Below are positions 4,049 through 47,116 of a stretch of DNA of 64,000 bases, in pieces (positions within the stretch are counted from its first letter, which is position 1; every line of letters begins with the position of its first letter). Position numbers and translations under genes: made by a program. The DNA comes from Pseudomonadota bacterium. Its GTDB lineage: Bacteria; Pseudomonadota; Gammaproteobacteria; Xanthomonadales; SZUA-38. The stretch spans positions 7,249 through 71,248 of the forward strand of contig JBCCVP010000003.1 in the NCBI GenBank assembly GCA_039195135.1. Direction: 5' to 3'. A model generated the notes under the pieces. The model was not told where the DNA came from, searched no databases, and was given only the letters and a program-made list of their open reading frames with translations.

Positions 4049-4149
4049 CCGGCCGGCAGGCCTTTGGTGACTCCGGGGCCGCCCTCTATACTGGCGCAAA
4101 CTTAAGACCGGCACCGTTAGGGTCGCCGTCACCAACTCGGGTAACCTCA

Positions 4150-7302: not shown

Positions 7303-9698
7303 AAGGACCACTCAAAGGCAACGCCAAAGGACTGCGGCTGTCCCAGCGAACCGGACGAAAGACCCGCCGGATCCGGAGATCTGAAGACGCTCACCAAATA
7401 TTCTTCGTCAAAGATATTTTGCCCATACAGAAACGCGTTCCACCGGCCAAGCTGGTAGCCGAGGCGGATATTGGTGAGAAAGTAGGCATCGGTCTCCAGC
7501 TCCGGGCCGTTTTGCACCTGGCTGAAATAGGCCCCGGAGTAGATATTGTCCACCGTCAGGGAAAAGCCCGACGCCAGGCGATAGGTGCCGCCGAAGGAGG
7601 CGTTCAGGCCCGGCTGAAAAGGAAACTCGTTGCCGTCAAGGTTTGATCCCTGAAACAGAAACTCGCCAAACTCAGAGTCGGCGAGGCCGACGGAGGCATA
7701 CAGCGACAGGTTGTCCGTTGCCCGCCAGAGCGTCTCCAGTTCGAGGCCATAGAGCTCTGACTCGCCAGCGTTGGCGATAAACCGGATAACGGGCGTCGCC
7801 GGATCCGGCGAAAAGCGAATCTTCATATCCGTATATTAGGTAAAAAATGCGTTGGCGCTTACCGACAGTGCACCGTCGAGGAAAAGGCCACGGTAGGCCA
7901 GCTCATAGTTTTTGGTGTATTCCGGAGAAAACTCGATCGCCTCTTGCGTGTCGGGCCGGATATCAGCCCCGCCAGGACGGTAGGCGCGCTGGAAGGTGAA
8001 GCTGAGGGCACTGTTGTCGGTAAAGTGATAGGTCAAACCAACCTTGGGCAGAAACGCATTAAAGCTCGCATCCCCTTCAAAGTTAGTGCTGTTGTTTGGC
8101 AGAAACGGTAGCGGCGGATCGACGATGAACGACGCGTTTTCCTGTCGCGTGGAGTCTTCCACGTCGTAGCGAGCCCCCAGCAACAGCGTCCAGGCGTCCG
8201 CGAATCGATACTCGCCCTCGGCAAACAGCGCGTAGTTGTCAAAGCTGTTGTCGTAGCCGTCGTTCAGCAGAAAACTGGAGCCCGCCAGGGAACCCTGAAC
8301 CGTACGCTGGCTCGCCTCGTCGAACCGGTTGAAATAGAGCCCCGCCAGCCCACGGAACAGCCCGCCGGCATCGTAGTTCAGGCGAAACTCCTGGGTGATC
8401 GTATCGTCCGCCCCGGTCAGCACGGTGCCAGCACCCATGCCACCGATCGTTTCTGCGATGGGATTCAGGGTGTTGGTCAGGTCGGTGTAGGAGGTGACTG
8501 ACGTAAACTGCAGCCGCTCGTTGACGTCGTAGCCGATATTCAGAGCGTATGAGGTGACGTCGGTTTCGGCGACATTGATGACCTCCGTTGCACGGCGCTG
8601 GAAGAAGTCGCTACCGTTGACCGTATTGGGAGCCTCCCGACTGTCAGACCGGGTGATCGACAGCTCGGCGCGCAGGTCGTCGCTGGGCGCAAATAGCAGC
8701 TTGCCACGATACAGATCGCGCTCGGCCCGCCCGATATCGTCCAGCACCTCACCCGCCGCCGTTTCAAACTCGGTGAAGCCGTCGCTGCGGGTCAGATCCG
8801 CCGCTATGCGAAACGCGAGGATGTCGTCAATCAGGGGCCCACCGACAGCCGCCGCATATTGACTGCTGCCAAATTCTCCCACCGCCAGGCGCGCCCGGCC
8901 GGTCCACTCAAAGCTGGGGTCTACCGTATTGACGATGACTGAGCCGCCCAGCGCCGCTCTACCCTGAGTGGTGGTCTGGGCTCCGCGAAACACCTCGACC
9001 TGATCGACATCCCAAGTACTCAGCAGCCCGCCGGCCGCACCGTTTTGCGACTGAATAGCTCCGTCCACGTAAATAGCCGACGTTTGAGCCGTGTCGCCGG
9101 TGCCGCTCCCGACCCCTCGTTCCGGGATACCCCGAATGGCCAGGCTGTTGCCACCGCCGGTGGAGACGTTCGGGATCCGCTGCAACACCTGCTCCATGTC
9201 GGTGATATAGCTGGCGTCTAGCACCACACCTTCCAGTACAGCGACGCTGGAAGTGGTGTCCTGCAGCGTGCGTTCGAACTTTTCGCCAAACACGACAATT
9301 TCATCGAGGGCTTTGACAGGCTCGTCCGGGTTGGCGCGCTCGGGATTTTCATTGGATCTGTCCTCGCCGGCGGGGAGGGCTTCCACCACATAGGCGCCGG
9401 TTGCTGTCCGCTTTGCCCTCAGCCCGGCCTGGCCCAGAGCCCGGCGCAGCGCCTCCTGCACCGTTAGCGACCCCGCGATGCGCGGCGCGGCTTTGTCGGC
9501 TACGAGACTGTCCGCTGCCATCACGTTGACCTGATAGGCCTCTGAGATAGCTCCGAGCGTAGCGCGAAGCTGGCCCGCCGACACATCAATGGTCTGACTG
9601 GCAATGGGCTGAGCGTGGGTCGCGCCTAGCTGCAGTGCACAGATCAGGACAGCAAAGGCGCGTCGAGCCTTCGCCAGGTTAGACAGAGATTTGGCCAT
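7299..9698 (-). pseudogene. FecA-type TonB-dependent transducer (STN signalling domain, plug, barrel) interrupted by one in-frame TAA at 7836-7838
   Basis: ORFs 7836-9725 and 7299-7826 are in the same frame. They are separated only by TAA plus 3 codons (...NAFFT*YTDMKIRF...). The N-terminus has a signal peptide (MAKSLSNLAKARRAFAVLICALQLGATHA) and an STN-like domain (IDVSAGQLRATLGAISEAYQVNVMA...SLTVQEALRRAL). The C-terminus ends FEWSF, the usual terminal aromatic residue of TonB-dependent receptors. ATG 9698 is preferred because AGGA lies 6 nt upstream. Confidence 0.7.
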
Positions 9699-9720
9699 CT
9701 TTTTCCTCGTTAGACATGAG

Positions 9721-9747
9721 GTCACGGGCGCCGATGAGCGGCGTTCC
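9721..9747 (-). promoter_or_regulatory. Candidate ECF-sigma-type promoter (GGAAC-N16-CGTGAC) in front of the FecA-type receptor
   Basis: The minus strand reads GGAAC (9747-9743), a 16-nt spacer, then CGTGAC (9726-9721). It sits between the fecR-like stop (9831) and receptor ATG 9698. This matches the general ECF pattern of an AAC-containing -35 and a CGT-containing -10. Motif match only. Confidence 0.35.
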
Positions 9748-9830
9748 GCGATGCCTCTTTACCCGGTACGACCCCTGAGGGCTCCAAACCCAAACCCGGG
9801 ACGGAAAAAAAAGAGGAGTCGTTGCTGCGC

Positions 9831-10880
9831 CTAGCGCAGCGGGAGGATTTCGATCGCTCCGGAGGGCTTTTTCACCAGCTGGACGGGCAGAATCGCGGGC
9901 AGCGTCTCGATCATGCCCTCAACGTCATTGCCGTCGAAGAAGGCGGTGACCCGGGCGGCAGCAAGCGCATCGCTCTGATCACTGATGGAAATTTGAAGCG
10001 GCAGATACCGCTGCGCATCAGCCACCAGCTCCGCCAGCGTGGCCCCGGCGTATACCAATCGCTTCGACCTCCACCCGGCCACCGACTCCGGGGCCACCGC
10101 CTCGACGCTGCGCAGCCCCTCAGCCATCGTTGCCGCGATGCGGGTTCCCGCGTTCAGCCTGGCGGTATCCCGCAGCGCTGTCGGCTGCCCGGCGATCACC
10201 TGCGGAAAGCGAACGGCAACCTCGCCCTCCGCAACGCCAACGCGCGACACGCCGCCGTTGTGGCGAACGTCGAAGCGGGTTCCAAGCACCGTGACCGCCA
10301 GCACTCCGGCTTCCACCACGAATGCCCGGCCGGCATCGGGCGTGACGTCAAAATAGGCCGCGCCGGACGTCATCCGCACCCGCCGTGTTGCCGGCGTCAA
10401 GGTCACCACAAGCTCGGTTTTTGCGCCCAGCGTCACCACGCTGCCGTCGTCGAGCGTCACGGATCGGATTTCACCAACGCCCGTTGCATGGGTTGACGTC
10501 GCGTGACTCAGTGTCGGCGCGGTCGGCCCGGCATCCTGCGACAGGAGCGCGACGACGCCGAGGCATGCCACCAACGCCAGGGCTGCGGCGCCCAGGCGCA
10601 GGGGGGATAGCTGCCCACCGTCGGCGGCAAAAAAGAAATCTGGCAGACGCTCCCACAGAGAACGGCGCCGCAGCCGGGGCCCCAGGTCATCGGCGTCGAG
10701 CGCACCCAGGGCCTCGAAGAGGGTTTGCGCCCGGTCAAATGCTGCCTCGTGGCGAAGGTCGGCGCTGATCCACGACTGAAACTGCTCCAGATCGGCGGGT
10801 GAAACGTCGGGCCCGGACAGCCGCGTACGCCAATCATGAGCCGCCTGCCGGATGACGTCCTGCTCTTGCGCCTCAATCAT
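9831..10880 (-). CDS. FecR-family transmembrane anti-sigma / sigma regulator
   Basis: MIEAQEQDVIRQAAHDWRTRLSGPDVSPADLEQFQSWISADLRHEAAFDRAQ is a typical FecR N-terminal region. It is followed by one TM segment and a periplasmic FecR domain. ATG 10880 overlaps the upstream sigma-gene stop by 8 nt (ATGATTGA), which implies translational coupling. Confidence 0.85.
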   Translation of the reverse strand: MIEAQEQDVIRQAAHDWRTRLSGPDVSPADLEQFQSWISADLRHEAAFDRAQTLFEALGALDADDLGPRLRRRSLWERLPDFFFAADGGQLSPLRLGAAALALVACLGVVALLSQDAGPTAPTLSHATSTHATGVGEIRSVTLDDGSVVTLGAKTELVVTLTPATRRVRMTSGAAYFDVTPDAGRAFVVEAGVLAVTVLGTRFDVRHNGGVSRVGVAEGEVAVRFPQVIAGQPTALRDTARLNAGTRIAATMAEGLRSVEAVAPESVAGWRSKRLVYAGATLAELVADAQRYLPLQISISDQSDALAAARVTAFFDGNDVEGMIETLPAILPVQLVKKPSGAIEILPLR

Positions 10881-13931: not shown

Positions 13932-15362
13932 CTAGAGGCAAAGGGGCGGCACGCACTCGAAGGAATCCTGAAAGATCAGGGTGAACAGCGACTCGAGGAA
14001 TCCCGAATCCAGCTTCCACAGCTCCCGACCGTCAACGCCGTTGTCCGCTTCAAACAGCAGCGCGTTGTTGACCACCCAGGCCTCCCCGCGGGGCGAGCCG
14101 TCGGCCGCGTCGGGATTGATATCGCTGATCAGCGCGACACCGCCGACGCTGCCGTTGGCGGCCCACCACTCAAAGCCATGTTCGGGCGTCTGGGCCCGGA
14201 ATATCAGGTGGTTATCAAACACGATCCACGGTCTGGGAGCCGCTCCGTTAGGGTCGCTGCTGATGGTCGCGACCAGTTCTGCGCTGCTGCCGGCAACCCG
14301 CCAGAGCTGGGGTCCGGTCGGCGACTTTGCGCCGAAATACACGTGGCCGCCAAATTCGACAAACTTTTCTGGGTCTGAGTCGAGGTTACCCGGCGCCACG
14401 TCCGCAATCATGAAGGTGCCCACGCTGGTCCCATCGCTGCGCCACGGCTCGACGCCGTCGTCCTCGGTCTGGCCGGCAAAGTACACCACGCCATTGATGG
14501 CATCGCCGGTAAACAGGAAGGTGCTCGCATAGCCGCTGCCGTTGCCCGGATTGATGTCCTCCACCTGCGAGGCTACATCGCTGCCGTTGGGCAGAAGCCA
14601 GGGTTCATTGCCGTCCGCCTCGCCTTCCGCGCTGGCCATAAACAGCCACCCCCCGCTCACGGGCCAGAAGCCGTTGCTGAAGCTTAAGCGAACGTCATTG
14701 GGGCCGAGGATTTCCGTGGCCACATCGCCAACGAGGCGATGCGGACGGTTGCCGATGGACGGGGGCGTCAGCGGCCGGGCGGTGAGCAGGGCCGAGTTGG
14801 CGTCGACCGGCGTCAGCGTGCTCGCGTTGGAGCTGCCCTGATCTTCGTTAATATCCACGTAGAGCACCGGGCCACTGCCAGCGTTGACCCACCAGATCTC
14901 GCGCTCGCCGGTCTCGTCAGAGGCCGTCACCAGCACGCGGCCACCAACGATCCCAAGCCAGGAAGGACTGGAGCTGGGCTCGCCCGGGCGAATGTCAAAC
15001 ACCGCCGGGATGCCCGGAAACGCGGCCACCGACCAGAGCTCGCTGCCGACAGCGTCATCAAAGGCGTTAAAAAAGGCGGTGCTGTTCAGGCTCCCCCGAA
15101 AGGTGGGAAACGACCCATCCGGTCCCATCCGCAGGTCGCTGAGCTGCTGCGTTCCTGCCGTTGTCCCATCACTGATCCAGGGCTCGGTTCCGTCGGCGCC
15201 GTTGTCGGCGCGGAAAAAGAACTGTCCATCGTTGACGATGCCGTCGAGCTGCGACTGACCATCCGGTCCGGGCCATATGTCCCGCACCATTTCCGGCTGA
15301 GCCAGGGCGGTTCCGGTGGCGATGGAACCAGCAAGCACGACGGCTACGGGGTGAATCTGCAT
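13932..15362 (-). CDS. Secreted ELWxxDGT-repeat protein
   Basis: ATG 15362 is preceded by GGAGG. Signal peptide MQIHPVAVVLAGSIATGTALA. Repeats of the ELWxxDGT type: TEPWISDGTTAGT, VEPWRSDGTSVGT, GSELWSV, GRELWKLDSG, PQLWRVAGSS. The C-terminus is LIFQDSFECVPPLCL. Confidence 0.75.
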   Translation of the reverse strand: MQIHPVAVVLAGSIATGTALAQPEMVRDIWPGPDGQSQLDGIVNDGQFFFRADNGADGTEPWISDGTTAGTQQLSDLRMGPDGSFPTFRGSLNSTAFFNAFDDAVGSELWSVAAFPGIPAVFDIRPGEPSSSPSWLGIVGGRVLVTASDETGEREIWWVNAGSGPVLYVDINEDQGSSNASTLTPVDANSALLTARPLTPPSIGNRPHRLVGDVATEILGPNDVRLSFSNGFWPVSGGWLFMASAEGEADGNEPWLLPNGSDVASQVEDINPGNGSGYASTFLFTGDAINGVVYFAGQTEDDGVEPWRSDGTSVGTFMIADVAPGNLDSDPEKFVEFGGHVYFGAKSPTGPQLWRVAGSSAELVATISSDPNGAAPRPWIVFDNHLIFRAQTPEHGFEWWAANGSVGGVALISDINPDAADGSPRGEAWVVNNALLFEADNGVDGRELWKLDSGFLESLFTLIFQDSFECVPPLCL

Positions 15363-15589
15363 GCAAAACCTCCTTGCTGTTTGGCGATCCGACGACGAGG
15401 ACTTTGCCGCCCTCAGAAGTAGGTAACGCATGCAGCAGGCGGATGCGCACAGTCAAAAGCAAATCATGCCGGGGCTGGAAGCTGTGGGTGTGTTACCACT
15501 CCGTATTAGCCTAGCGGCCAATTGATTGATTGCCAGCAACTGACCATCATGCAGCAATCGACTGAGAACACCCACGTAGGACCAGTACA

Positions 15590-17626: not shown

Positions 17627-19201
17627 TCATGCTGCGGTCGTCAGGCGACCCATTACTTCCACAGTCTCCCCTTGAGCGCGTGAGCTCAGTAGCTGACCAA
17701 CCTCTTCCCGGATGTGGCGGCGAGCGTCGTCCAGCGCCGTATGGCCCCAGCGATCCAGCGAAGAGGTAGCTACTCCCTGGCGAATCAGATAGCGGACTGT
17801 ATCAACCTGCCCTTCTGACGCCGCAAGGTGAAGCGGCGTCCTCCCATCATAGTCAGCCCGATTGAGATCGTGACCGTGGGCAACCAGGCGCTTCAGATCC
17901 TCGATATCGCCGATGCTCGCAGCATGAATCGCTCGACAGGTTCGGTCATATTCGTCGGCACTGCGAAACCTTCGCGGATCGGTTTTGCTTGTCGAAAGCA
18001 GACTGTCGTAGTTGTGGAAAGCAAAGCGGCCCACAAGCTCTTTGAGAAACGCAACGCCGCGGACGCTATTACCGCAGGCGTCGAGCCTGGGCGACCAGAC
18101 CGCAATACCCATGACGTTGGGGATCACCGCGAGAATTACGCCGGAAACGGCAGACTTTGCCGGAATGCCTACCGAAAACGCGAACTCACCGGAGTAGTCG
18201 TACATGCCGCAGGAGTACATCATCGACAGGCAATTCTTGACCGTTTCTTCTTTGAAAACCCGCACGCCGGTGGTGGGACACACGCCCCCGTTGGCAAGCG
18301 TGGAGCCGATCATTGCCATGGCCTCGGTGTTGATCTCAATCGAACACGCCGAAAAGTAGTAATCAAGCGTTGCTTGAATCTGGGTGTCCGGCAGGAAAGC
18401 ACCTCTCTCGCGCATGTGGTGTGCGAGCGCAAAGTTCCGGTCTGCCGTTTCCCGCTCTGAGTGCCAGATGGCCGTATTGACGTGGCAACGTTGCCCCCCC
18501 GCCATGGCAGAAACCAGATCCGTCAGAAACTCAATGCGATCGGCGGTAGGCGCAGCACGCCGAATCAGGCTGCTGGTCATGATGGCGCCCGCGTTGATCA
18601 TGGGATTGTGCGGCAGCCCGTCTTTGTTGAGCGTCAGTTCGTTAAAGGAAAGACCGCTTGGCTCCCGGCCAACGTGGCGATGCACCGACGCTTCACCCCA
18701 TTCCTCAAGGGCGGCGGCGTAGAGAAACGGCTTGCAGCTGGATTGCAGCGTGAACCCCACATGCGACTCGCCAACCGAGTAGGATTGCCCATCGACAGTG
18801 GTGATGGACACGCCGAACGCCTCCTCTGACACGCGGGCAAGCTGGGGAATGTAGTCGGCCACCTGCCCATCGCGTTGGCCGCTGACCTCATCATGGAGTC
18901 CCGCAATTTCCTCGGCAAAGCGGCCAAACTCGGGGATAGCCAGGTCACCCCTGGCCGCCCGGGACACCAGTTCGCCACTATCTTCCATCAGTTCACCAAA
19001 CGCCTGCGGAGGGAGAGGTTTATCTCCCATCGCAGCGAGGCGCTGGCGCAGGGCCGCTAGGCGGGCGTCGGAGATGCCGATGCCGGATTTGGCCAGACAC
19101 GCAACAAGCTCGCCCTTGCTGATGGTGCCGTCACCATCAGCATCGATGGATCGGAAAATGGCTTCCGCTTTGGTTGTCGCCGCTAACTTGGGGTTTGTCA
19201 C
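17627..19201 (-). CDS. Glutaminase with an N-terminal EF-hand and C-terminal ankyrin repeats
   Basis: Canonical EF-hand loop DADGDGTISKGE. Glutaminase core motifs: DYIPQLA, LQSSCKPFLYAAAL (S-x-x-K), NPMINAGAI, SGVILAV. Ankyrin repeats: DGRTPLHLAASEGQVDTVRYLIRQGV, then WGHTALDDA. GTG 19201 is preferred (AGGAGA 6 nt upstream); the track ORF starts at TTG 19225. Confidence 0.85.
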   Translation of the reverse strand: MTNPKLAATTKAEAIFRSIDADGDGTISKGELVACLAKSGIGISDARLAALRQRLAAMGDKPLPPQAFGELMEDSGELVSRAARGDLAIPEFGRFAEEIAGLHDEVSGQRDGQVADYIPQLARVSEEAFGVSITTVDGQSYSVGESHVGFTLQSSCKPFLYAAALEEWGEASVHRHVGREPSGLSFNELTLNKDGLPHNPMINAGAIMTSSLIRRAAPTADRIEFLTDLVSAMAGGQRCHVNTAIWHSERETADRNFALAHHMRERGAFLPDTQIQATLDYYFSACSIEINTEAMAMIGSTLANGGVCPTTGVRVFKEETVKNCLSMMYSCGMYDYSGEFAFSVGIPAKSAVSGVILAVIPNVMGIAVWSPRLDACGNSVRGVAFLKELVGRFAFHNYDSLLSTSKTDPRRFRSADEYDRTCRAIHAASIGDIEDLKRLVAHGHDLNRADYDGRTPLHLAASEGQVDTVRYLIRQGVATSSLDRWGHTALDDARRHIREEVGQLLSSRAQGETVEVMGRLTTAA

Positions 19202-19363
19202 TCTCGATCTCCTGATTCGACACAAGGGATGCTGGGGCGCCCCAGCGTTCTAAATCAGTCAATCGGATTTGCCGGGCAATTCCGCCACGCTGCGGACGAG
19301 GTCAGGTTACGGCCAAGGCGGCGGTGCTGCAGATCTTAAGACCAGTGCCCGAAGCTCCTGATG

Positions 19364-36962: not shown

Positions 36963-39167
36963 CTACTCGAACCCGCTGGCGAAGATCGTCTCCAGCCGAA
37001 GCGTGAAGGCACCAATATTCTCTGACCACACGCTGCCGGCCTGATCGAAGATGCCGCCGACATACACGGTACTGCCATCCAGAAACAGTGTTCGACCGGC
37101 GGAACCGGTGATGTCGTCGTGGAGACCGGCACCCAGCGGATACCAGGTTGTGCCGTCAAAATAGGCCAGCCGATTGACCGCCGTCGTACCCGAGGTACTA
37201 AACCAGCCGGTTGCCACCACCGCATCATCCGCAATAATCAGATCCTCGACGCCGAAAATATTGGCCTGCAGGCCCTCGCCGAGCTGGCCCCAGGTGTCAC
37301 CGTCGAAGCGGAACACCTGGCCGTCGAACGAGCCGCCCACGTAAAGGTTGTCACCCTGCGCCTTGAGCACCTCAATTTCGCCAAAGAAGGTGGGAGTATC
37401 CTGGTCAAACGTCTCCCAGTCAGTGCCATTCCAGCGCACGATGGTGGCCACACTGCCGGGCCGGTAGGCAGCGATAAGATCACCGTTGTACACCGCCAGC
37501 GCCGTCGGCGTGGAGAACGTGTTGGGCAGATCAGTAAACTCCGTCAGGGTGGCCCCATCCCAGGACAGAATCGGGCCAGCGCCCGATAGGAAGTTACCCG
37601 TCAGGATGAGCTGATCGTTCCAGACCACCATCTGGCTGCCGGGGACGTTAACCCCCTCACCGACTGCGCTCCAGGCCTGGCCGTCCCAGCGGGCCAGGCC
37701 AGATATCTGCTGGCCTCCCGCTTCGTTGAACAGGCCCATGACGTAAAGTTCACCCTGAAACTCGGCCATCACCTGGACCGATGGCGCCTGGCTGGTGGGT
37801 CCGTTAAAAGCCAGACCTGCGCCCAGCCCGTGCCAGGCCCCTTCCCGGTACTCAGCAATCAGGCCAACCAGCTGATCACCGGCCCCGGTGAACTCACCGC
37901 CGGCCACGACGGCACCGTTGTAGCGGGTGATATCCAGCACATCGTTGTTGATGCCCTGGGCCAGGCCGCGCCAGCGGGTACCATTGTTACAGGCAACGCC
38001 CCGGCTGAAAAACTGCTGATCAACAGCGGTGCCTTGCTGCACGCCGCAGATCTCTCCGCCCAGGGAAAACAGGTCCAGGAACTCGGCGTTACCCAGCGTT
38101 TCGGCGTCGGGCACCGCCTCCCACTCCTGCGCCGCGTTCAGGCGGGCAATGCCGCGGGCGTCCGGGTCAATGTCGGTAAAGTTACCCGTGGCGTGGAAGA
38201 ATCCGTTGGCCACAGCCAGGGCACCAAACCCCGTGTTGACGCCCGAGCTGCTGCCCACGGCGCTCCATTCCATCGAGCCGGCGTCGTACTCGGAAACTGC
38301 TCCCGCCGGCCGGCCGCCCCACTGGGTGGAGATGCTCGACGTGGCAGCGACGCGCGTGGCGTTGATGTCGATATCCCGAATCGGGTTGAGCGTGTTGCTG
38401 CTGCCCAGGTCCATCCATTTGTCGTTTGCGCCCGAAGACCAGCGGCGAACGCTTGAACCCACCCCGGCGTAAACGAACGATACGTCCGGCAGGATCGCGG
38501 TCACGGTGCCGTTGACGCCGTTGCTGGTGCCGACGTTGTCTGTATCCAGCGGCTCCCAGCTGAATCCGCCGGTACGCACAATGCGGTTCGCTGACACGGG
38601 CGTCATCATCGCGTTGTCGACAAAGGTAAAGCTGCCGCCCAGGTAAACCCGCGTCCCGTCCCAGGCCAGCGCATACACCGGTCCGTTGGGCCCGTTGCCC
38701 GGCCCGTTGATCTGCAGCCAGCTGCCCGAGGTGGTGTAGCACGCGAAGTAGTTCAGGTCTTCCGGGCCGAGGCTGGTGAAATCGCCGCCGATGCAAATGC
38801 TGGTGCCAAAAGGCGTAACGTCCCGAACGGGGAACGATCCCGACAGAAAACCGCAGTTATCGCCGCCGGGCTCCGTGGGGCCTATATCACCGGTGGTGCT
38901 CCACTCGCCATTTTCGTAGCGAATGAGCATGTGGCACTCAATGGAGCCGTCCGGCGCCCGAAATCGCATCGGTATGCTGCGGGTACCGGTAGATCCGACA
39001 AACCCGTTAGCCGACGGCGCCGCGTTGCGCAGCACGCTCTCAGGAAAGCCGGCAAACTGGTTCAACCACGTGAATGCCGGGGCCTGCGCCGCGGCGCTGC
39101 CGGCCCCCAATATTCCCCCAACAACTCCCCCAATCAGCGCGCTGCGCATTCCTTTCCTGACGTTCAT
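36963..39167 (-). CDS. Secreted beta-propeller-like repeat protein ending in ...IFASGFE
   Basis: ATG 39167 is preceded by AAGGAG. Signal peptide MNVRKGMRSALIGGVVGGILGAGSAAAQA. Many repeats of the form G-G-x-F-x-x-x-G......[IL]A-x-[WF]-D-G-x-x-W-x-x-[LV]-G, e.g. GLFNEAGGQQISGLARWDGQAWSAVG, GWFSTSGTTAVNRLAYFDGTTWYPLG. Confidence 0.75.
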   Translation of the reverse strand: MNVRKGMRSALIGGVVGGILGAGSAAAQAPAFTWLNQFAGFPESVLRNAAPSANGFVGSTGTRSIPMRFRAPDGSIECHMLIRYENGEWSTTGDIGPTEPGGDNCGFLSGSFPVRDVTPFGTSICIGGDFTSLGPEDLNYFACYTTSGSWLQINGPGNGPNGPVYALAWDGTRVYLGGSFTFVDNAMMTPVSANRIVRTGGFSWEPLDTDNVGTSNGVNGTVTAILPDVSFVYAGVGSSVRRWSSGANDKWMDLGSSNTLNPIRDIDINATRVAATSSISTQWGGRPAGAVSEYDAGSMEWSAVGSSSGVNTGFGALAVANGFFHATGNFTDIDPDARGIARLNAAQEWEAVPDAETLGNAEFLDLFSLGGEICGVQQGTAVDQQFFSRGVACNNGTRWRGLAQGINNDVLDITRYNGAVVAGGEFTGAGDQLVGLIAEYREGAWHGLGAGLAFNGPTSQAPSVQVMAEFQGELYVMGLFNEAGGQQISGLARWDGQAWSAVGEGVNVPGSQMVVWNDQLILTGNFLSGAGPILSWDGATLTEFTDLPNTFSTPTALAVYNGDLIAAYRPGSVATIVRWNGTDWETFDQDTPTFFGEIEVLKAQGDNLYVGGSFDGQVFRFDGDTWGQLGEGLQANIFGVEDLIIADDAVVATGWFSTSGTTAVNRLAYFDGTTWYPLGAGLHDDITGSAGRTLFLDGSTVYVGGIFDQAGSVWSENIGAFTLRLETIFASGFE

Positions 39168-39260
39168 CCTGCTCTCCTTTGCATGGTGGTCTTTTACACA
39201 TGCGCAGGGTCTCCGCAGAACGCGCCAGGTTTTTTTCACGACACATGCTGTCGTGTCGGA

Positions 39261-42200
39261 TTAGCGCCAGCTGGGCGCCCCCGCCTCCGTCAGGGTGGCT
39301 TCCAGTTCCTTGAGCTCGCCCGCCAGGAGCGCCTCAAGGTCCGCGCTGAAGGCCGTAAACGCCTCGCTGGCGATCTCATAGTCGGTCCGCTGGGTCGCCG
39401 TGGGCAGCTGCGTGGTGTTCCAGCTGTTGGACGTGTTGAAAGCACGTCCACCGATCGACGGCGAAACAGACTCATCCAGGCCCCGGCGCACCCGATCGCC
39501 GGACAGACGGGTCTGCAGCCGGCCCAGCTCAACGCCTAAGGCATCAAGGCGCACCAGCAGTTCGGGCGAAGCAGCGGGAGCCCGCACGGCCGCCGCCTTC
39601 ATATGGGACAGGAGGTCCCGGGTACGCTTAATCTCCTCGCCGGCATTAACCACCTGTCGCAGCAGCTCCGCCGATTGCTGCTGAAAGGCGGCCACCGCCG
39701 CATAATCGGTGCCGTCGGCTGCCTGCCGCACCGGCTTAACGCGAAAGGACTGGGCTGCCCCGAGCGGTGCAGCCGTGCCATCGCTTAACCCGTAAAGCTG
39801 CACTGAATACTCACCCGGGGCAGCGAGCGGCCCCTGGGGATCACTGACCCAAGGCGGCGTGAACTCTGGCACGGACAGGTCCACCGCGTCCGGCGCCGGC
39901 CGGCGCAGGTCCCAGGTCACCCGGCTCGTGCCCTTTTTGTTGGCGGCCTTCAGCCAGCGCACCGGCTGGTCGTTTGCGTCGCTCACCAGCAGCAGCACCT
40001 GCGGCTTGGTCGCTTCGGCCTCCTCGGTCAGCGTGTCCCAGCCTGGAAAGGCCACGTCCTCCCCGTCCTCGCGCAGCGACTTCTCGCGCTCCCGGCGAAT
40101 CTGTTTTTTCGTCTGAAAAGCTTCCGGCAGATAGTAGCTAATGGCGGCGCCAAATTCCGGATTGGGTGTGCGGAAGCTGTCGCTGCCCATGGTCGGCATG
40201 CCTTTGGCCTGGGTCGGCACCGACGGGATGTACCACCAGGCGTCCCGCACCGGGAACACGGTGGCTGCGTCGCCAAAATCGTCCGCCGCCATCGTCCGCA
40301 GCGCCGAGTAGTCGTCGAGGATGTAGATGCCCCGGCCAAAGGTGGCACCGACCAGATCGTTGTCCCGGCGCTGCAGCTTGATATCGCGAAAAGCGATCGT
40401 GGGCGCCCCCGCCAGCTTGTGCCAGTTGGTGCCGCCATTGAGGCTGAAATAGAGTCCATATTCTGCGCCGAGAAACAGCAGGTTTGCGTTGTCCTCATCC
40501 TGCTGAATGGCCCAGACGATGGTGCCGTCGGGCAGATCGCCGGCGATGGACCGCCAGCTCTGGCCGCGGTTGCTGCTGACAAAGACGTAGGGAGAGAAAT
40601 CGCCCAGCTTGTGGCCATCCGCCACCGCAAACACGGTGTCAGCGTCATGCTGGGACGCCTCGACGTCGTTGATGAACAGCGGGCTTACGTCGCCGGGCAG
40701 GGTGCGTGCGCGCTGCCACTGCTCTCCTCCGTCCGCGGTGGCGTGAAGCAGACCGTCGTCGGTGCCGGCGTAAAGGACGCCTTCGCGCACCGGCGACTCA
40801 GAGATGGCGGTGATGGTGGCGTATTTCGACATGGCGCCATTGTCGTGCAGCGCATCAACGCTGAAGACGCGGCCCTGATAGGTGCGCGCATAGCGATTTT
40901 CGTTGCTGGTGAGATCGCCGCTGACGGCCTGCCAGGCGTCGCCCCGGTTGTCGCTGCGCCAGACCCGCTGCGAGCCGACGTACACCCGGGCCGGGTTGTG
41001 CGGGCTGACCACGATGGGCGTGTCCCAGTTCCAGCGCTCCGGCGGTTCGCCGGGGGCCGGTTGGGGCTGAATATGCACCAGCTCATTCGTATCCCGGCGA
41101 TGCCGGAACATGTAGCCCTGCTGAAACTCCATATACGAAATGTTGTTATCGCTCGGATCGAACACCACGCTGTAGCCGTCCGCCCCCAGAGGCACGTACC
41201 AGTCCTGATTGCGAACGCCTTCGGTAATCATCGTTCGGGACGGGCCGAAGAGGGTGCCCAGATCCTGCGCGCCCACGAGGACGTTGTAGAACGGTTCCGT
41301 GTTGTCGACGGCAATCTTGTAAAACTGGGAGATGGGCAGGTTGGGAAAGTGGCGCCAGCTTACGCCCTGGTCAAAGCTCTCATACAACCCCGCATCCGTG
41401 CCCGCCAGCAGGTGCAGGTCGTTGTCCGGATCGATCCACAGCGCGTGGTTGTCGCTATGTTTCTCCCGTCCGGTACCCAGCACGGAGAAATTGTTGCCTC
41501 CGTCCCGGGTAACCCGGAAGAACACGTCCATCTGAAACACAAGATCGGCGGTCTGCTGCGAGGCGGTCAGCTCCTGATAGTAATGGGGTCCGGTACCACC
41601 CGAGATGTAGGGGTTCTGGTGGCTCCAGCTCTCACCTTCGTCCGCCGAGCGGTAGAAGCCCTTGCTGTCGTCGTCCGCTTCGATCGTCGCGTAGACCAAC
41701 CGCGGATCAGCGGCGGTGACGGCCAGGCCGATTTTTCCCACATCGCCCTCCGGCAGTCCCCGCGACTTCTTGTCCCAGGTGGCGCCGGCGTCAGTGGATT
41801 TATAAATCCCGCCGTTCGGCCCGCCGGCGAGGAGCCCCCAAACGTGGCGCCGGCGCTCATAGGCGGCGGCATAAATCACATCCGGATCGGTCGGGTGGAA
41901 TACCAGGTCAGCAACGCCGGTGTTCTCGTCAATCTCGAGCACCGCGTCCCAGCTCGCGCCGCCGTCGGTGGACTTGTAGACCCCACGTTCCCCACCCGGC
42001 GCCCAAAGCGGCCCTTCCGCGGCCGCGTAGACCACCGCGCTGTTCCGGGGATCGATCAGAATTTTTGAGATGTGCTCAGATCGTGCCAGCCCAAGGTTGG
42101 TCCAGGTTTTCCCGCCGTCGTTGCTCCTGTACACGCCACTGCCCCAGCCCACGTGGCGGCCGCTCACGTTCTCGCCGGTGCCCACCCAAACCACGTTGGG

Positions 42201-42557
42201 ATTGTTCGGATCGACGGTCACATCGCCGATGGAATAGGAAGCCTGATCGTCAAAAATTGGCGTCCACGTGGTGCCCGCGTTGGTGGTTTTCCACACGCCG
42301 CCGGAGCCCACCGCCACGTACCAGAGATTTCGGTGATCCGGATGAATGGCAATGTCAGCAATGCGCCCGCCCATAAAAGCCGGCCCGATGCTCCGCAGCT
42401 TGAGGCCCTTTGCCGCCTCAGCGACGGTCTCCTGGCTGGCGGCAAACACCGTTACTGAGCCTGCCGAAAGGCACATCAAAGCGATCCCGGCTAGCGCTCG
42501 GCGCTGAAACTTCGAGGCAAACATTCCCATTCGGTTGGTCAATTTCACGATCATCAT
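39261..42557 (-). CDS. Secreted sortilin/VPS10-like BNR (Asp-box) repeat protein, paralog of 4150-7302
   Basis: Asp-boxes: KTTNAGTTWTPI, RSNDGGKTWTNL, KSTDGGASWDAV, KSTDAGATWDKK, RSADEGESWSHQ, ATADGGEQWQRA, SSNRGQSWRSI. It shares GGVWKTTNAG and other blocks with the 4150 gene. The start is ATG 42557 or 42527; the track's extension to 42848 would overlap truC and is rejected. Confidence 0.85.
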   Translation of the reverse strand: MMIVKLTNRMGMFASKFQRRALAGIALMCLSAGSVTVFAASQETVAEAAKGLKLRSIGPAFMGGRIADIAIHPDHRNLWYVAVGSGGVWKTTNAGTTWTPIFDDQASYSIGDVTVDPNNPNVVWVGTGENVSGRHVGWGSGVYRSNDGGKTWTNLGLARSEHISKILIDPRNSAVVYAAAEGPLWAPGGERGVYKSTDGGASWDAVLEIDENTGVADLVFHPTDPDVIYAAAYERRRHVWGLLAGGPNGGIYKSTDAGATWDKKSRGLPEGDVGKIGLAVTAADPRLVYATIEADDDSKGFYRSADEGESWSHQNPYISGGTGPHYYQELTASQQTADLVFQMDVFFRVTRDGGNNFSVLGTGREKHSDNHALWIDPDNDLHLLAGTDAGLYESFDQGVSWRHFPNLPISQFYKIAVDNTEPFYNVLVGAQDLGTLFGPSRTMITEGVRNQDWYVPLGADGYSVVFDPSDNNISYMEFQQGYMFRHRRDTNELVHIQPQPAPGEPPERWNWDTPIVVSPHNPARVYVGSQRVWRSDNRGDAWQAVSGDLTSNENRYARTYQGRVFSVDALHDNGAMSKYATITAISESPVREGVLYAGTDDGLLHATADGGEQWQRARTLPGDVSPLFINDVEASQHDADTVFAVADGHKLGDFSPYVFVSSNRGQSWRSIAGDLPDGTIVWAIQQDEDNANLLFLGAEYGLYFSLNGGTNWHKLAGAPTIAFRDIKLQRRDNDLVGATFGRGIYILDDYSALRTMAADDFGDAATVFPVRDAWWYIPSVPTQAKGMPTMGSDSFRTPNPEFGAAISYYLPEAFQTKKQIRREREKSLREDGEDVAFPGWDTLTEEAEATKPQVLLLVSDANDQPVRWLKAANKKGTSRVTWDLRRPAPDAVDLSVPEFTPPWVSDPQGPLAAPGEYSVQLYGLSDGTAAPLGAAQSFRVKPVRQAADGTDYAAVAAFQQQSAELLRQVVNAGEEIKRTRDLLSHMKAAAVRAPAASPELLVRLDALGVELGRLQTRLSGDRVRRGLDESVSPSIGGRAFNTSNSWNTTQLPTATQRTDYEIASEAFTAFSADLEALLAGELKELEATLTEAGAPSWR

Positions 42558-42638
42558 TTCCTGGTTTCTGGACTTGTCCTGCAGTCCGCTGGCGGGTCGC
42601 GAGGACCGGAGCGGCGGTCTATCGTACACTCCCCCGCT

Positions 42639-43445
42639 GTGATGATCCTGCGCCGCGCCGCGGCCACGCCCTTGGCAGAATCTACCGAAAGCGCCCGCCT
42701 CGAAGTGATCTACGCCGACGATCAACTGGCGGCAATCAACAAGCCACCGGGGCTGCTGACGCACCGCAGCGCCATCGCCCGGCAGGAGTCGCTTTACGCG
42801 CTTCAGCTGCTTCGGGATCAGCTCGGCCAGCACGTTTTTCCTGTCCATCGACTGGATAGACCAACCTCCGGTGTCCTGCTGTTCGCGCTGAACCGGGACT
42901 GCGCCCGGCGCTTATCCGCGCAGTTTTCCGACGGACTGGTGAGCAAAGACTATCTCGCCGTGGTTCGGGGCTACTGTCCCGTTCTGGGCACCATCGATCA
43001 TCCGCTCAAGGAACAGCTGGACCCAACAACCGACCGCCGGGCGCGGGCTGACAAGCCGCCGCAGGATGCGCAAACGACGTACAAGCGGCTGGCGACCGTC
43101 GAGCTGCCGGTGCAGGTGGATCGGTATCCGCAAACCCGCTATTCGCTGGTCCACCTCAAGCCGCAGACCGGCCGCAAGCATCAGCTGCGCCGGCACATGA
43201 AGCACCTGGGCCACCCGATCATCGGCGACAGCACGCACGGCAAAGGGATTCACAACCGATTTTTTGCCCGCGAGCTTGCCTGCCCTCGTTTGCTGCTGGC
43301 GTGCGTTGGGCTGCAGTTGCAGCATCCGGTCAGCGGCGAGGCCCTGTCGCTTACCGCCGGTCCAGGTGGAGATTTTTTAAACGTGCTGACGCGGTTTGGC
43401 TGGACCGATCAGGCTGCAGGGCGGTTGGATGGACTTAAAGCGTAA
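42639..43445 (+). CDS. truC: tRNA pseudouridine synthase C (RluA family)
   Basis: AINKPPGLLTHRS, the catalytic HRLDRPTSGVLLFAL, TGRKHQLRRHMKHLGHPIIGDS and a LTRFGW C-terminus closely parallel E. coli TruC as I recall it. Confidence 0.85.
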   Translation: MMILRRAAATPLAESTESARLEVIYADDQLAAINKPPGLLTHRSAIARQESLYALQLLRDQLGQHVFPVHRLDRPTSGVLLFALNRDCARRLSAQFSDGLVSKDYLAVVRGYCPVLGTIDHPLKEQLDPTTDRRARADKPPQDAQTTYKRLATVELPVQVDRYPQTRYSLVHLKPQTGRKHQLRRHMKHLGHPIIGDSTHGKGIHNRFFARELACPRLLLACVGLQLQHPVSGEALSLTAGPGGDFLNVLTRFGWTDQAAGRLDGLKA

Positions 43446-43585
43446 CCGGGGACTGCTAGTCATGTGGTTTGCCCGGCGACCAGAACCGGTTAGTGCACCG
43501 ACAGCAGCGCAGCCGGCTCCGCGGGTTTGACCGGTACCTGGGCAAACCTTTCCGAAACTGAGACAAGCCCGACGAGGGGTATACT

Positions 43586-43984
43586 TTGTCGATGGCGACT
43601 TCTGCGCTGACACGATCACAACCGCTGGTGGCGTCGGGCACCCGGCGACGGGGCCTGCTTGCGTTCGGCGCTGCACTGGTCCTGACCCTGGGATTGATCA
43701 CGCTGCCCGGCGAGCGTGCGGCTATGGAGCCGGCGCTGCTCAACCTGATGAAGTTCATGGCAGCCATCAAAGCCGGCACCGCGCTGCTGGCGCTCGCGCT
43801 CTCGGGCTGGCGCCTGGGTCGCCCCGCCTCACCCGCTCTCCTGACAGCCCTCTACGCCGGCCCGATCGGCATGACCGGCGCCGCCTTGACCATCTGGCAG
43901 CTCCAATACCTGCTGCCCGCCATGGCCGTGTTCTACGGCTCCCTGGCGCTCCTGATCTGGGCGGCGATTGTGGACTCCGACTAA
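43586..43984 (+). CDS. Small membrane protein (about 4 TM), unknown function
   Basis: 132 aa, hydrophobic (LLAFGAALVLTLGLITL, AGTALLALALSGW, GPIGMTGAALTIW, AMAVFYGSLALLIWAAI). GC3-rich codons. The start is TTG 43586 or ATG 43592. Confidence 0.5.
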   Translation: MSMATSALTRSQPLVASGTRRRGLLAFGAALVLTLGLITLPGERAAMEPALLNLMKFMAAIKAGTALLALALSGWRLGRPASPALLTALYAGPIGMTGAALTIWQLQYLLPAMAVFYGSLALLIWAAIVDSD

Positions 43985-44059
43985 CCGGGCGCCCTCCCCC
44001 TGGACGACTGTGGATCTCCGTCTAGACTGACGAGACGGAAGACAAAAGGGAGCCCTCAC

Positions 44060-44596
44060 ATGAAATCACTGTTGTTGGCAGCAGCCCTGCTGCTGGGCAC
44101 CGGCTCCGCCGCTGCAGACATCTTCCTGTGTACCGGGGGCGGCATCGCAGGAAGCGTGCAGGACCCGGATTTTGTGCGCTGTATAGCTATCACCTCCTAT
44201 CAGGCTGGCATTTCAACGCCCGAATCCGGCCAGATCGGCAGCGGCCGCACCCGTGGAAATGCGGAGTTCACTGACTTCGTGCTGAGCAAAGCGTTTGATC
44301 TGTCTACCCTTGGCCTGCGCCGGGCCGCGATCCAGGGCGAAGCGTTTCAGGAATGGTCTATCCATTTCCTGACCACCGGCTGCGGCAATCAGCGACTGGA
44401 ATACCAGCGCATCAACGTTAGCAACGTGGTGGTCAGTTCGATAAACGAGACCGCCACGGACGAAGGCACGGCGGCGGAAGTGCTGACGCTCAACTTCGAA
44501 GAGGTGGAGTGGATTCAAACCACCTATGACGACACCTGTCAGGTTTCGGGAACCGAAACCTTCGCCTGGAACGTAGGCGACGCCGCACCGCCCTGA
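44060..44596 (+). CDS. Hcp/TssD-family (T6SS tube protein fold) homolog carrying a Sec signal peptide
   Basis: AAGGGAG lies 7 nt upstream of ATG 44060. MKSLLLAAALLLGTGSAAA precedes DIFL, the point where canonical Hcp proteins begin. Hcp-like blocks run the whole length: IAITSYQAGIS, AEFTDFVLSKAFDLSTLGL, LEYQRINVSNVVVSSI, EVLTLNFEEVEW, FAWNV. The mature region has four Cys and no in-frame Met. Confidence 0.8.
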   Translation: MKSLLLAAALLLGTGSAAADIFLCTGGGIAGSVQDPDFVRCIAITSYQAGISTPESGQIGSGRTRGNAEFTDFVLSKAFDLSTLGLRRAAIQGEAFQEWSIHFLTTGCGNQRLEYQRINVSNVVVSSINETATDEGTAAEVLTLNFEEVEWIQTTYDDTCQVSGTETFAWNVGDAAPP

Positions 44597-44979
44597 TGAG
44601 CGTCGCCGCACTGCTGATATTGGCTGCTGCCGCAGCACCGGCGCAGCCGGTCTGGCCCGAGGCGCCGGTGGTCTATGCCGCAGCTTCAGACCTGACCAGC
44701 GCGCAGCTGGTGCAGACGAAGCTGCTGCGCGATGGCCAGCGGATACTCAGCACCAACGTCCGCCTGGCCTGCCGCGAGGCACTGCTGCGCAGTCCCGAGT
44801 TTCTCGCTTTCGATCCGCGGGCCGGCACCTGTCGCGGCGTCAGTTCCACACCGGTGCCGGTGGAAGGCTCCCTGGTGGTTTTGGAGCCGCCGCCGCTGGA
44901 GCTGGTCTGCGTCTGCCCGCCGGACGCATTCTTCATCTTTTTAGACGGGTTTGAAGCTGCCACGCCTCAGCGATTCTGA
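44596..44979 (+). CDS. Small secreted Cys-containing protein, translationally coupled to the Hcp-like gene
   Basis: Its ATG overlaps the upstream TGA (TGATG at 44594-44598). 127 aa with a hydrophobic N-terminus (MSVAALLILAAAAAPAQP), four Cys (LACRE, GTCRG, LVCVCPP) and the C-terminus FFIFLDGFEAATPQRF. GC3-rich codon usage. Confidence 0.6.
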   Translation: MSVAALLILAAAAAPAQPVWPEAPVVYAAASDLTSAQLVQTKLLRDGQRILSTNVRLACREALLRSPEFLAFDPRAGTCRGVSSTPVPVEGSLVVLEPPPLELVCVCPPDAFFIFLDGFEAATPQRF

Positions 44980-46267: not shown

Positions 46268-47116
46268 TTACTTCTCGACGAACGCCCGCTCGATTACGTA
46301 GTCGCCCGCCACGCCGCTGCTGGGTGACGCCTCAAAGCCGAGATCATCCAGCGCCTTTTGCGTGTCTGCCAGCATCGGAATCGAGCCGCACAGCATGGCG
46401 CGGTCTGTGGCGGGATCAAGCGGCGCAATACCCAGCAGCTCGCAGAGCCTGCCGCTGTTGATCAGGTCGGGGATGTGACCGCTGGTGGGAAACGGCTCCC
46501 GGGTCACCAGCGGAAGGTAGCGCAGCTGGGCCGAGATCATGTCGCCCAGATATTCATGATTGGGTAACTGCGTTTCGATCAGGTTCCGATACGCCAGATC
46601 GCACACCCGGCGAACGCCGTGCACCAAGATCACATCGTCAAAGCGCTCGTAGGCTTCCAGATCCTGGATCGTACTCAGAAACGGGGCGAGGCCGGTGCCG
46701 GTGGCAAACAAGAACAGGCGCTTACCCGGCTTCAGGTCGGTCAGTATCAGGGTACCCACCGGTTTCCGGCTGATCAGCAGCGTGTCGCCGACCTTGACCT
46801 TCTGCAGCCGCGAGGTCAGCGCGCCGTCCGGCACCTTGATCGAGAAAAACTCAAGGTGTTCAGCGTAGTTGGGGCTGGCAATAGAGTAGGCGCGCAGCAG
46901 CGGGCGGTCGTTTACCTCCATCCCCAGCATGACAAACTGCCCGTTCTCAAAGCGCAGCGAATCCGGTCGGGTCGTGCGCAGGCTGAATAGCTTGTCACTC
47001 CAGTGATGGACGTGGGTGACCGTCTCAAGGTACTGCCCTTTGGACGGACGTCGCGGCGCAGGTTTGTCTTCTCCGCCGGTTGGCGCAACCGGCGGCTCAT
47101 GAGTTTCAAAAGTCAT
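46268..47116 (-). CDS. fpr: Ferredoxin-NADP+ reductase
   Basis: RAYSIAS (FAD-binding R-x-Y-S), GTGLAPF (NADP-binding), the LCGS motif and a C-terminal aromatic-containing tail. Typical bacterial Fpr. Confidence 0.9.
   Translation of the reverse strand: MTFETHEPPVAPTGGEDKPAPRRPSKGQYLETVTHVHHWSDKLFSLRTTRPDSLRFENGQFVMLGMEVNDRPLLRAYSIASPNYAEHLEFFSIKVPDGALTSRLQKVKVGDTLLISRKPVGTLILTDLKPGKRLFLFATGTGLAPFLSTIQDLEAYERFDDVILVHGVRRVCDLAYRNLIETQLPNHEYLGDMISAQLRYLPLVTREPFPTSGHIPDLINSGRLCELLGIAPLDPATDRAMLCGSIPMLADTQKALDDLGFEASPSSGVAGDYVIERAFVEK

Follow-up and report, generated by a model that had tools for sequence, protein, structure and literature searches.

A leader-bearing Hcp-like protein and its predicted exported partner in a gammaproteobacterial contig

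Hcp (TssD), the tube protein of the secretion system known as type VI (T6SS), is treated as a hallmark of that system and is used as its marker in annotation and in secretion assays. Hcp-dependent effectors include small proteins encoded beside hcp, and in Hcp-ET proteins, where toxin domains are fused to the C-terminus of Hcp, and orphan hcp–effector islands an Hcp module is likewise accompanied by a variable, cargo-like downstream protein outside the main T6SS cluster. Both arrangements resemble a two-gene module that we analyzed in a 64,000-nucleotide stretch (hereafter the window) of contig JBCCVP010000003.1 (positions 7,249 to 71,248; assembly GCA_039195135.1), from a bacterium of the Pseudomonadota (Gammaproteobacteria; Xanthomonadales; SZUA-38). 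The first gene of the module (window positions 44060–44596, forward strand) encodes a 178-amino-acid protein whose fold and Pfam assignment (PF05638) place it in the Hcp superfamily, and which has the same β-barrel fold as Hcp1 of Pseudomonas aeruginosa (PDB 1Y12) and Hcp1 of Acinetobacter baumannii (4W64), with template modeling (TM) scores of 0.8–0.9 and 24–26% identity. The second gene (44596–44979, forward strand) encodes a 127-amino-acid partner. We do not class the Hcp-like protein as a T6SS tube protein, because it carries a leader, shows no association with a T6SS in the window or at the related loci, and misses the cut-off of the TssD model. The finding is genuine, recurs from locus to locus, and annotation error does not account for it.

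The Hcp-like protein and its leader

The 178-amino-acid product matched the Pfam profile T6SS_HCP with an E value of 5.4e-22 (78.9 bits; gathering cut-off 23.5), the alignment spanning residues 27–151 of the query and positions 5–127 of the 129 in the profile; against the NCBIfam TssD model (TIGR03344) it scored 33.5 bits, which is under the curated cut-off of 58.9. The top sequence match in the PDB was Hcp1 (4w64; E 9e-13). An AlphaFold2 model built with 124 homologs as input had a predicted local distance difference test score (pLDDT) of 92.3 and a predicted TM score of 0.85, and Foldseek superposed it on the Hcp1 structures 4w64 and 1y12 (E ~1e-15; TM 0.80–0.90). The mature domain (residues 20–178; 44117–44593, forward strand) is thus, on its predicted structure, that of a genuine Hcp-fold protein with the Hcp β-barrel, and the Hcp homology proposed in an initial annotation of this DNA, made from the sequence alone, was upheld by both the profile search and the model. 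PDB entry 7FCF, to which the depositors gave the name “Fimbrial protein,” is a T6SS Hcp crystal structure.

The open reading frame (ORF) coordinates, the lengths of both products, and a Shine-Dalgarno sequence (AAGGGAG; 44046–44052, forward strand), 7 nucleotides 5′ of the ATG and also kept in the related locus L001, agreed with the initial annotation when the sequence was read again. The ratio of nonsynonymous to synonymous substitution rates (dN/dS) of the Hcp gene is 0.09 between the window and L001, an 84%-identical relative, and 0.105 between two other loci (L005 and L006); the gene is under purifying selection. A 7-bp inverted repeat (TCCGTCT...AGACGGA) with a 9-nucleotide loop lies 20–40 nucleotides 5′ of the Hcp start (44017–44039, forward strand), is nearly kept in L001 (one mismatch, in the 3′ arm), and may be a regulatory hairpin or operator.

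Codons 1–19 (44060–44116, forward strand; MKSLLLAAALLLGTGSAAA) encode a predicted signal peptide with cleavage between AAA and DIF, conserved in the homologs P0001, P0002, and P0005. By inspection, the leader divides into an n-region (MK), an h-region (SLLLAAALLLG), and a c-region (TGSAAA, followed by D) with Ala at −3 and −1, as expected of a Sec substrate of signal peptidase I; a lipoprotein reading was rejected, as there is no lipobox Cys. Signal-peptide calls throughout were made by inspection and by a crude hydrophobicity rule, which picks out this leader and those of 97 of 124 homologs. The leader is also the sole weak region of the AlphaFold2 model, with low pLDDT and without secondary structure. 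Export of the Hcp-like protein via Sec, with cleavage between AAA and D, is therefore predicted from features of the sequence.

The leader is joined where normal Hcps begin. In the alignment, D20 of the query pairs with D4 of P. aeruginosa Hcp1, so that the 19 N-terminal residues stand in for the first three of a normal Hcp, and a tblastn search against plasmids returned canonical leaderless Hcps only, which aligned from query residue 20 or 29 onward. The mature protein has no Met, and the in-frame alternative starts are limited to TTG at codons 5 and 6, within the leader, and GTG at codon 33, use of which would remove strand β1 and the invariant Cys24. Because no alternative start spares β1, the leader is not removable by choosing another start. 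Leaderless orthologs, which would point to a local mis-start, were not found: the leader is kept in every ortholog recovered, including P0001 (90% identity) and P0002 (57%). The earlier claim of a Sec-type leader fused at the normal Hcp start therefore withstood inspection, alignment, and the start-codon check.

Four cysteines are present in each protein of the module, as first noted (residues 24, 41, 108, and 159 of the Hcp-like protein; 59, 79, 105, and 107 of the partner). Across the 16-member subgroup that contains the query, Cys24 and Cys41 are invariant, and Cys108 and Cys159 are either jointly present or jointly absent; as a pair, Cys24 and Cys41 are confined to leader-bearing homologs. 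Cysteine counts are even in 39 and odd in 17 members of the leader-bearing class, compared with eight and 12, respectively, in the leaderless class (Fisher p = 0.03). In the AlphaFold2 model, Cys24 lies at the end of β1 and Cys41 at the start of β2 (DSSP strands 20–24 and 42–44), such that a disulfide between them would staple the base of loop 25–40, and Cys108 and Cys159 are positioned at the tips of two hairpins. The cysteine pattern is compatible with disulfides formed outside the cytoplasm, without being proof of them.

The partner gene and conservation of the module

The stop codon of the Hcp-like gene (TGA, 44594–44596) and the start codon of the partner gene (ATG, 44596–44598) have one base in common. 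This TGATG (44594–44598, forward strand), which is kept as an overlap or a very short gap in L001, L002, and L011, suggests translational coupling of the two genes. The partner has a probable leader of its own (44596–44643, forward strand; MSVAALLILAAAAAPA) with an approximate cleavage point between APA and QP, judged by inspection; classical leaders are seen in its homologs at L008 (MRFLSILGLLLTSLAQAA) and L014. A Tat-type leader that would draw on an upstream RRRRR stretch was rejected, since it needs a CTG start and the stretch is not found in homologs. With its TGATG overlap, hydrophobic leader, four cysteines, and FIFLDGFE sequence (residues 113–120), the second ORF is as the initial annotation had described it. 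The dN/dS of the partner gene is 0.11 between the window and L001 and 0.17 between L005 and L006; it, too, is under purifying selection. The 127-amino-acid product had no match in Pfam or NCBIfam, a profile search of the PDB was empty, and PADLOC returned nothing for the Hcp-like protein, the partner, or their neighbors.

Partner genes at the related loci encode proteins with a common plan: a leader; an N-domain of ~100 residues that has a pair of Cys with a spacing of exactly 20 (19 for L011); in the majority, a CxC motif; and a C-terminal [ILV]Fx[DN][GS]FE no more than seven residues from the stop. Long partners (240–276 amino acids) contain an Ig-like He_PIG domain inserted after the N-domain, and the variant partner of L009 (P0022) contains a PKD domain. 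When short partners were compared with long ones, pairwise BLAST was not significant by itself, and a profile–profile comparison with hhalign gave a P value of 0.007. A hidden Markov model (HMM) was built from the partner N-domains of the other loci, with leaders and tags removed and the window sequence not included; it ranked the partner ORF first of the 545 ORFs of the window (E 0.0027; runner-up 0.51). On account of these profile tests, the fixed gene position, the Cys spacing, and the C-terminal tag, we regard the partners as members of a single family. A protein search from an alignment of partners, the L009 PKD domain among them, yielded generic PKD proteins only, and the N-domain family is known by synteny.

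The module was found at the window/L003, L001, L002, L004/L005, L006, L007, L008, L010, L011, and L014, with the variant partner at L009. Pairing of Hcp-like and partner genes is thus kept from 90% down to ~28% Hcp identity, at about ten independent loci, and the partner gene lies directly 3′ of the Hcp-like gene in all loci of the clade. P0001 (90%) and P0002 (57%) were the only close homologs obtained by word-indexed search, and their contigs carry the overlapping partner directly 3′. More distant members were found by exhaustive phmmer search and locus look-ups; these likewise have an exported protein encoded directly 3′, and comprise P0005 at 42% identity (L004/L005; L006, from a Lysobacterales metagenome-assembled genome, MAG; and L007), P0015 at 31% (L008), P0026 at 30% (L010), P0021 at 29% (L011), and a P0117-like gene (L014). 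Automatic annotation at NCBI labels the P0005 cluster “type VI secretion system tube protein Hcp”; the partner is entered there as “hypothetical protein.” A single-protein scan of species-representative genomes found no locus, a search from a four-sequence alignment found two MAG loci only, and of two metagenome scans the first found none and the second one locus.

No T6SS genes were found within 8–10 kb at about ten related loci. The flanks vary by locus (GlnD/DapD/ClpB; GlyRS/TatABC; an extracytoplasmic function (ECF) sigma/kinase pair; a phytoene-desaturase-like gene) and none belongs to a T6SS; the module is patchily distributed in otherwise unrelated, housekeeping surroundings. L001 and the window share their chromosomal site, 3′ of rluA. 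In the space that separates rluA from the Hcp gene, L001 has an 872-amino-acid TIR_2/FGE-sulfatase gene (376–2994), the corresponding stretch of the window (43457–43956) has a 132-amino-acid membrane ORF, and DNA homology between the two restarts ~100 nucleotides 5′ of the Hcp start. From these limits and the differing upstream genes, the module consists of the two genes and their upstream region; the 132-amino-acid ORF was rejected as a member because it is replaced in L001. The spot between rluA and the module is variable, and possibly a site of defense-gene insertion. The TIR/FGE-sulfatase gene of L001 has weak ThsB-like TIR matches in PADLOC.

In all, the exhaustive search recovered 1096 proteins at E ≤ 1e-3. 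Single-domain proteins account for 124 of the 150 top-ranked cluster representatives; in 97 of these the Hcp domain is preceded by an N-terminal extension containing a hydrophobic core, and in 26 it is not. These 97 distinct 50%-identity clusters are a lower bound for the leader-bearing class, and the proportion is not a family-wide estimate because the leader of the query itself biases the ranking. The gene had been singled out at first as unusual; the leader-bearing Hcp-like protein is real, but with at least 97 leader-bearing clusters it is not a one-off. In a rough neighbor-joining tree the query falls in an all-leader clade of 14, there is a second all-leader clade of 26, and the rest is poorly resolved.

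The multi-domain relatives include 11 complete proteins of 1048–2164 amino acids with exactly six tandem Hcp domains joined by linkers of ~20 residues (P0003, P0004, P0006–P0009, P0011, P0012, P0034, P0043, and P0142), and nine others with exactly two; Pfam likewise counts six Hcp domains for P0003 and two for P0010. Many multi-domain relatives start with a recurrent N-terminal motif, LE.R.LL[AS]. The six-domain proteins have secretion-type N-termini, in some cases with additional Big_13 domains, and may be single-chain pseudo-hexameric rings. At the P0003 locus (L016) there are no T6SS genes and no contractile-system neighbors.

The C-terminal tag of the partner (IFLDGFE; 44935–44955, forward strand) ends seven residues ahead of the stop, and occurs in all full-length partner homologs at 0–7 residues from the stop. 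The initial annotation had listed FIFLDGFE as a motif of the partner; it is present as stated, but it is not private to this protein. The pattern [ILV]Fx[DNS][GS]FE also ends two unrelated proteins in the window, a leader-bearing 758-amino-acid β-propeller protein (36963–39239, reverse strand; ending in TIFASGFE) and a leader-bearing 499-amino-acid protein (13932–15431, reverse strand; ending in LIFQDSFECVPPLCL), as well as the likewise leader-bearing product of the gene immediately 5′ of the Hcp gene in L005/L006 (about 9201–9929; ending in VFSDGFE). No transmembrane helix or basic tail follows the tag, which has no Pfam match and no NCBIfam match at E ≤ 10. IFxDGFE looks like an unrecognized C-terminal sorting or recognition tag.

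Possible roles outside the cytoplasm

The reading that we favor, tentatively and in the knowledge that it may well be wrong, is that the two genes form an operon whose products both act outside the cytoplasm, as a periplasmic ring and its coupled cargo, independently of a T6SS. The Hcp-like protein would be exported via Sec, cleaved between AAA and D, and stabilized in the oxidizing periplasm by disulfides Cys24–Cys41 and Cys108–Cys159, and the mature protein would assemble into a six-membered ring, as cytoplasmic Hcp does. The main, indirect reason for supposing that exported Hcp-likes keep a six-membered ring is that relatives have exactly six tandem Hcp domains. The translationally coupled partner would also be exported, its N-domain would contain two disulfides, and the ring would bind this N-domain stoichiometrically, in or on the lumen, as T6SS Hcp does with small effectors. 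Without a T6SS, the partner would then be stabilized, escorted, or displayed by the ring, either within the periplasm or on the cell surface. In accord with this, the Ig-like He_PIG or PKD domains of the long partners are of a kind common in surface or extracellular proteins. We posit binding in or on the ring because T6SS Hcp is reportedly both receptor and chaperone for effectors bound in its lumen; the mature partner comprises ~110 residues, a size that the 40-Å Hcp lumen could hold.

Several observations weigh against this ring-carrier reading. The n-region of the partner leader is uncharged. The structure model of the partner, with a pLDDT of 55, is too poor for its size and shape to be matched to the lumen, and its Foldseek matches are noise; the long partners (240–276 amino acids) are too large for one ring, from which their Ig-like domain would protrude. 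The presence of the tag on unrelated proteins suggests some sorting route. The absence of T6SS genes covers the 64-kb window and the 8–10 kb around the relatives, and a T6SS may be encoded elsewhere in the genome. In addition, P0025 and P0033, two leader-bearing Hcp-likes on longer contigs, are monocistronic, without this partner and without T6SS neighbors. The co-occurrence of leader-bearing Hcp and partner, which had been suggested as a check, is thus constant within the loci of the clade but does not extend to these two; partner binding is for this reason not the general role of the class, and the partner is specific to one clade of leader-bearing Hcp-likes.

A broader version of the ring-carrier reading, which we consider possible but doubtful, is that leader-bearing Hcp-likes are widespread T6SS-independent extracytoplasmic rings, built as single-domain hexamers, two-domain trimers, or six-domain single chains; the ring encoded here would be a chaperone or carrier dedicated, in the periplasm or at the surface, to its co-translated and disulfide-bonded partner, which would be routed by the hitherto unrecognized IFxDGFE tag.

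Alternatively, exported rings could stack into an extracytoplasmic tube or fiber, of which the partner would be the cap, tip adhesin, or anchor and not cargo. Hcp rings are intrinsically prone to stacking, and the Ig-like He_PIG or PKD domains found in the long partners are of a type that surface structures commonly have. Six-domain relatives with Big_13 domains look like structural extracellular proteins, and a metaproteomic study found T6SS_HCP-domain proteins to be abundant in the extracellular proteome of granular biofilm, where they were read as tubular subunits with no further analysis (PMC12019908). We nevertheless consider a tube or fiber unlikely: no usher, secretin, or sortase-like gene is conserved beside the module, the gene order and overlap coupling point to 1:1 production and not to major and minor subunits, and passage of the Hcp-like protein across the outer membrane would be an assumption.

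The partner could instead be a bacteriocin-like or toxic exported protein, with the Hcp ring as its export escort or as a self-protection factor. This is what a tight, coupled two-gene module that occurs patchily in unrelated genomic surroundings might suggest, as might a small, fast-diverging partner with two predicted disulfides and no known family, given that toxic effectors are among the known ligands of T6SS Hcp. Such a role is improbable, however, for a partner that bears no signature of a toxin domain and matches nothing in PADLOC, Pfam, or the PDB, and the dN/dS of which (0.11–0.17) shows no diversifying selection; moreover, the long versions have adhesin-like Ig domains and there is no separate conserved immunity gene.

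A periplasmic decoy, in which the Hcp ring would sequester Hcp-loaded effectors injected by T6SS competitors, accords with the binding of effectors by Hcp lumens, with the periplasmic action of many effectors, and with the absence of a T6SS of its own nearby; nonetheless, it leaves the conserved exported partner, the C-terminal tag, and the six-domain planctomycete relatives unexplained, and no immunity-island context is seen at the loci, which makes it very improbable. Finally, that the gene, either with its start mis-called or as an orphan copy in decay, encodes a normal cytoplasmic tube protein for a T6SS located elsewhere in the genome might be argued from the NCBI label of the P0005 cluster, the common occurrence of orphan hcp genes far from T6SS clusters, and the window being only part of the genome, but is hardly credible for a protein that has no alternative start sparing β1, an ortholog-conserved leader under purifying selection, a score well below the TssD cut-off, conserved paired Cys suited to an oxidizing compartment, and a conserved exported partner, and that, if Sec-exported, would be unable to supply a tube assembled in the cytoplasm.

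Surroundings and comparison with known systems

Gene calling by length and third-position GC gave ~47 likely genes in the 64-kb window, and Pfam scans of these genes found no members of the TssA–M, VgrG, PAAR, or ClpV families, in agreement with the earlier impression that T6SS genes are absent from it. The window encodes TonB-dependent receptors, FecR/ECF-sigma pairs, β-lactamase-fold proteins, and two large TPR regulators, together with other miscellaneous genes that include an RluA-type pseudouridine synthase (42639–43445) and a ferredoxin–NADP reductase-type protein (46268–47116). Closer to the module are the 132-amino-acid membrane ORF upstream, a convergent 238-amino-acid membrane ORF downstream, and a 169-amino-acid exported protein, none of which could be assigned to a family. 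A reading of the Hcp-like gene as a phage tail tube gene was rejected, because the window has no phage genes.

Three further features of the window lie apart from the module. One TonB-dependent receptor gene (7299–9725, reverse strand) has a single in-frame TAA (7836–7838), between NAFFT and YTDMKIRF. This stop is preceded by the Plug domain and the beginning of the barrel and followed by the barrel's last 120 positions; the gene is either a pseudogene or the product of an assembly error. A 532-amino-acid glutaminase (17627–19225, reverse strand) has EF-hand matches at its N-terminus and ankyrin repeats at its C-terminus, an architecture that resembles eukaryotic kidney-type glutaminase and is unusual in bacteria. 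Two paralogous Sortilin-Vps10/BNR-repeat proteins of ~1100 amino acids (3931–7302, forward strand; 39261–42848, reverse strand) are encoded near genes for TonB receptors or exported proteins.

Neither Sec-exported or periplasmic Hcp homologs, nor six-domain Hcp proteins, nor the DGFE tag are described in the searchable full-text literature, the coverage of which excludes many subscription journals; within that literature, the statement that no system of this kind has been described holds, and the exported Hcp-like class is apparently undescribed. The implications are both practical and biological. Automatic “T6SS tube protein Hcp” labels are wrong for many environmental genomes. If the proposed export is correct, the tube fold of contractile tails has been recruited to the far side of the inner membrane, where this tube/ring fold of contractile systems would have found a further use, periplasmic or extracellular, and may represent a chaperone, carrier, or scaffold of a new extracytoplasmic type. 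Hcp rings already serve as protein-engineering scaffolds, and natural versions that are disulfide-stapled or, as six-domain proteins, formed from a single chain would be of practical interest for engineering. The conserved partner and the common C-terminal tag offer direct experimental handles.

With regard to the tag, the PEP-CTERM/exosortase, GlyGly-CTERM/rhombosortase, and MYXO-CTERM systems likewise place a short C-terminal motif on several unrelated exported proteins per genome; unlike those domains, IFxDGFE lies only 0–7 residues from the stop, and is without a transmembrane helix, a basic tail, or an NCBIfam model. The gp27-like module of VgrG and phage tail tube or tube-initiator proteins form pseudo-hexamers, and the six- and two-domain Hcp relatives follow the same principle of fused tube domains. 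However, the former belong to contractile machines that are assembled in the cytoplasm, whereas the six-domain relatives have secretion-type N-termini and no contractile neighbors. Compared with Hcp/TssD itself, the protein described here has a conserved, predicted cleavable leader, two probable disulfides, and a TssD score below the cut-off; T6SS genes are absent both from the window and from about ten related loci, and the neighboring protein, which matches no known effector family, is itself predicted to be exported. Hcp-ET proteins and orphan hcp–effector islands are leaderless, cytoplasmic, and T6SS-dependent, whereas in the module described here both proteins bear predicted leaders and the cargo-like protein is separate from the Hcp domain and not fused to it.

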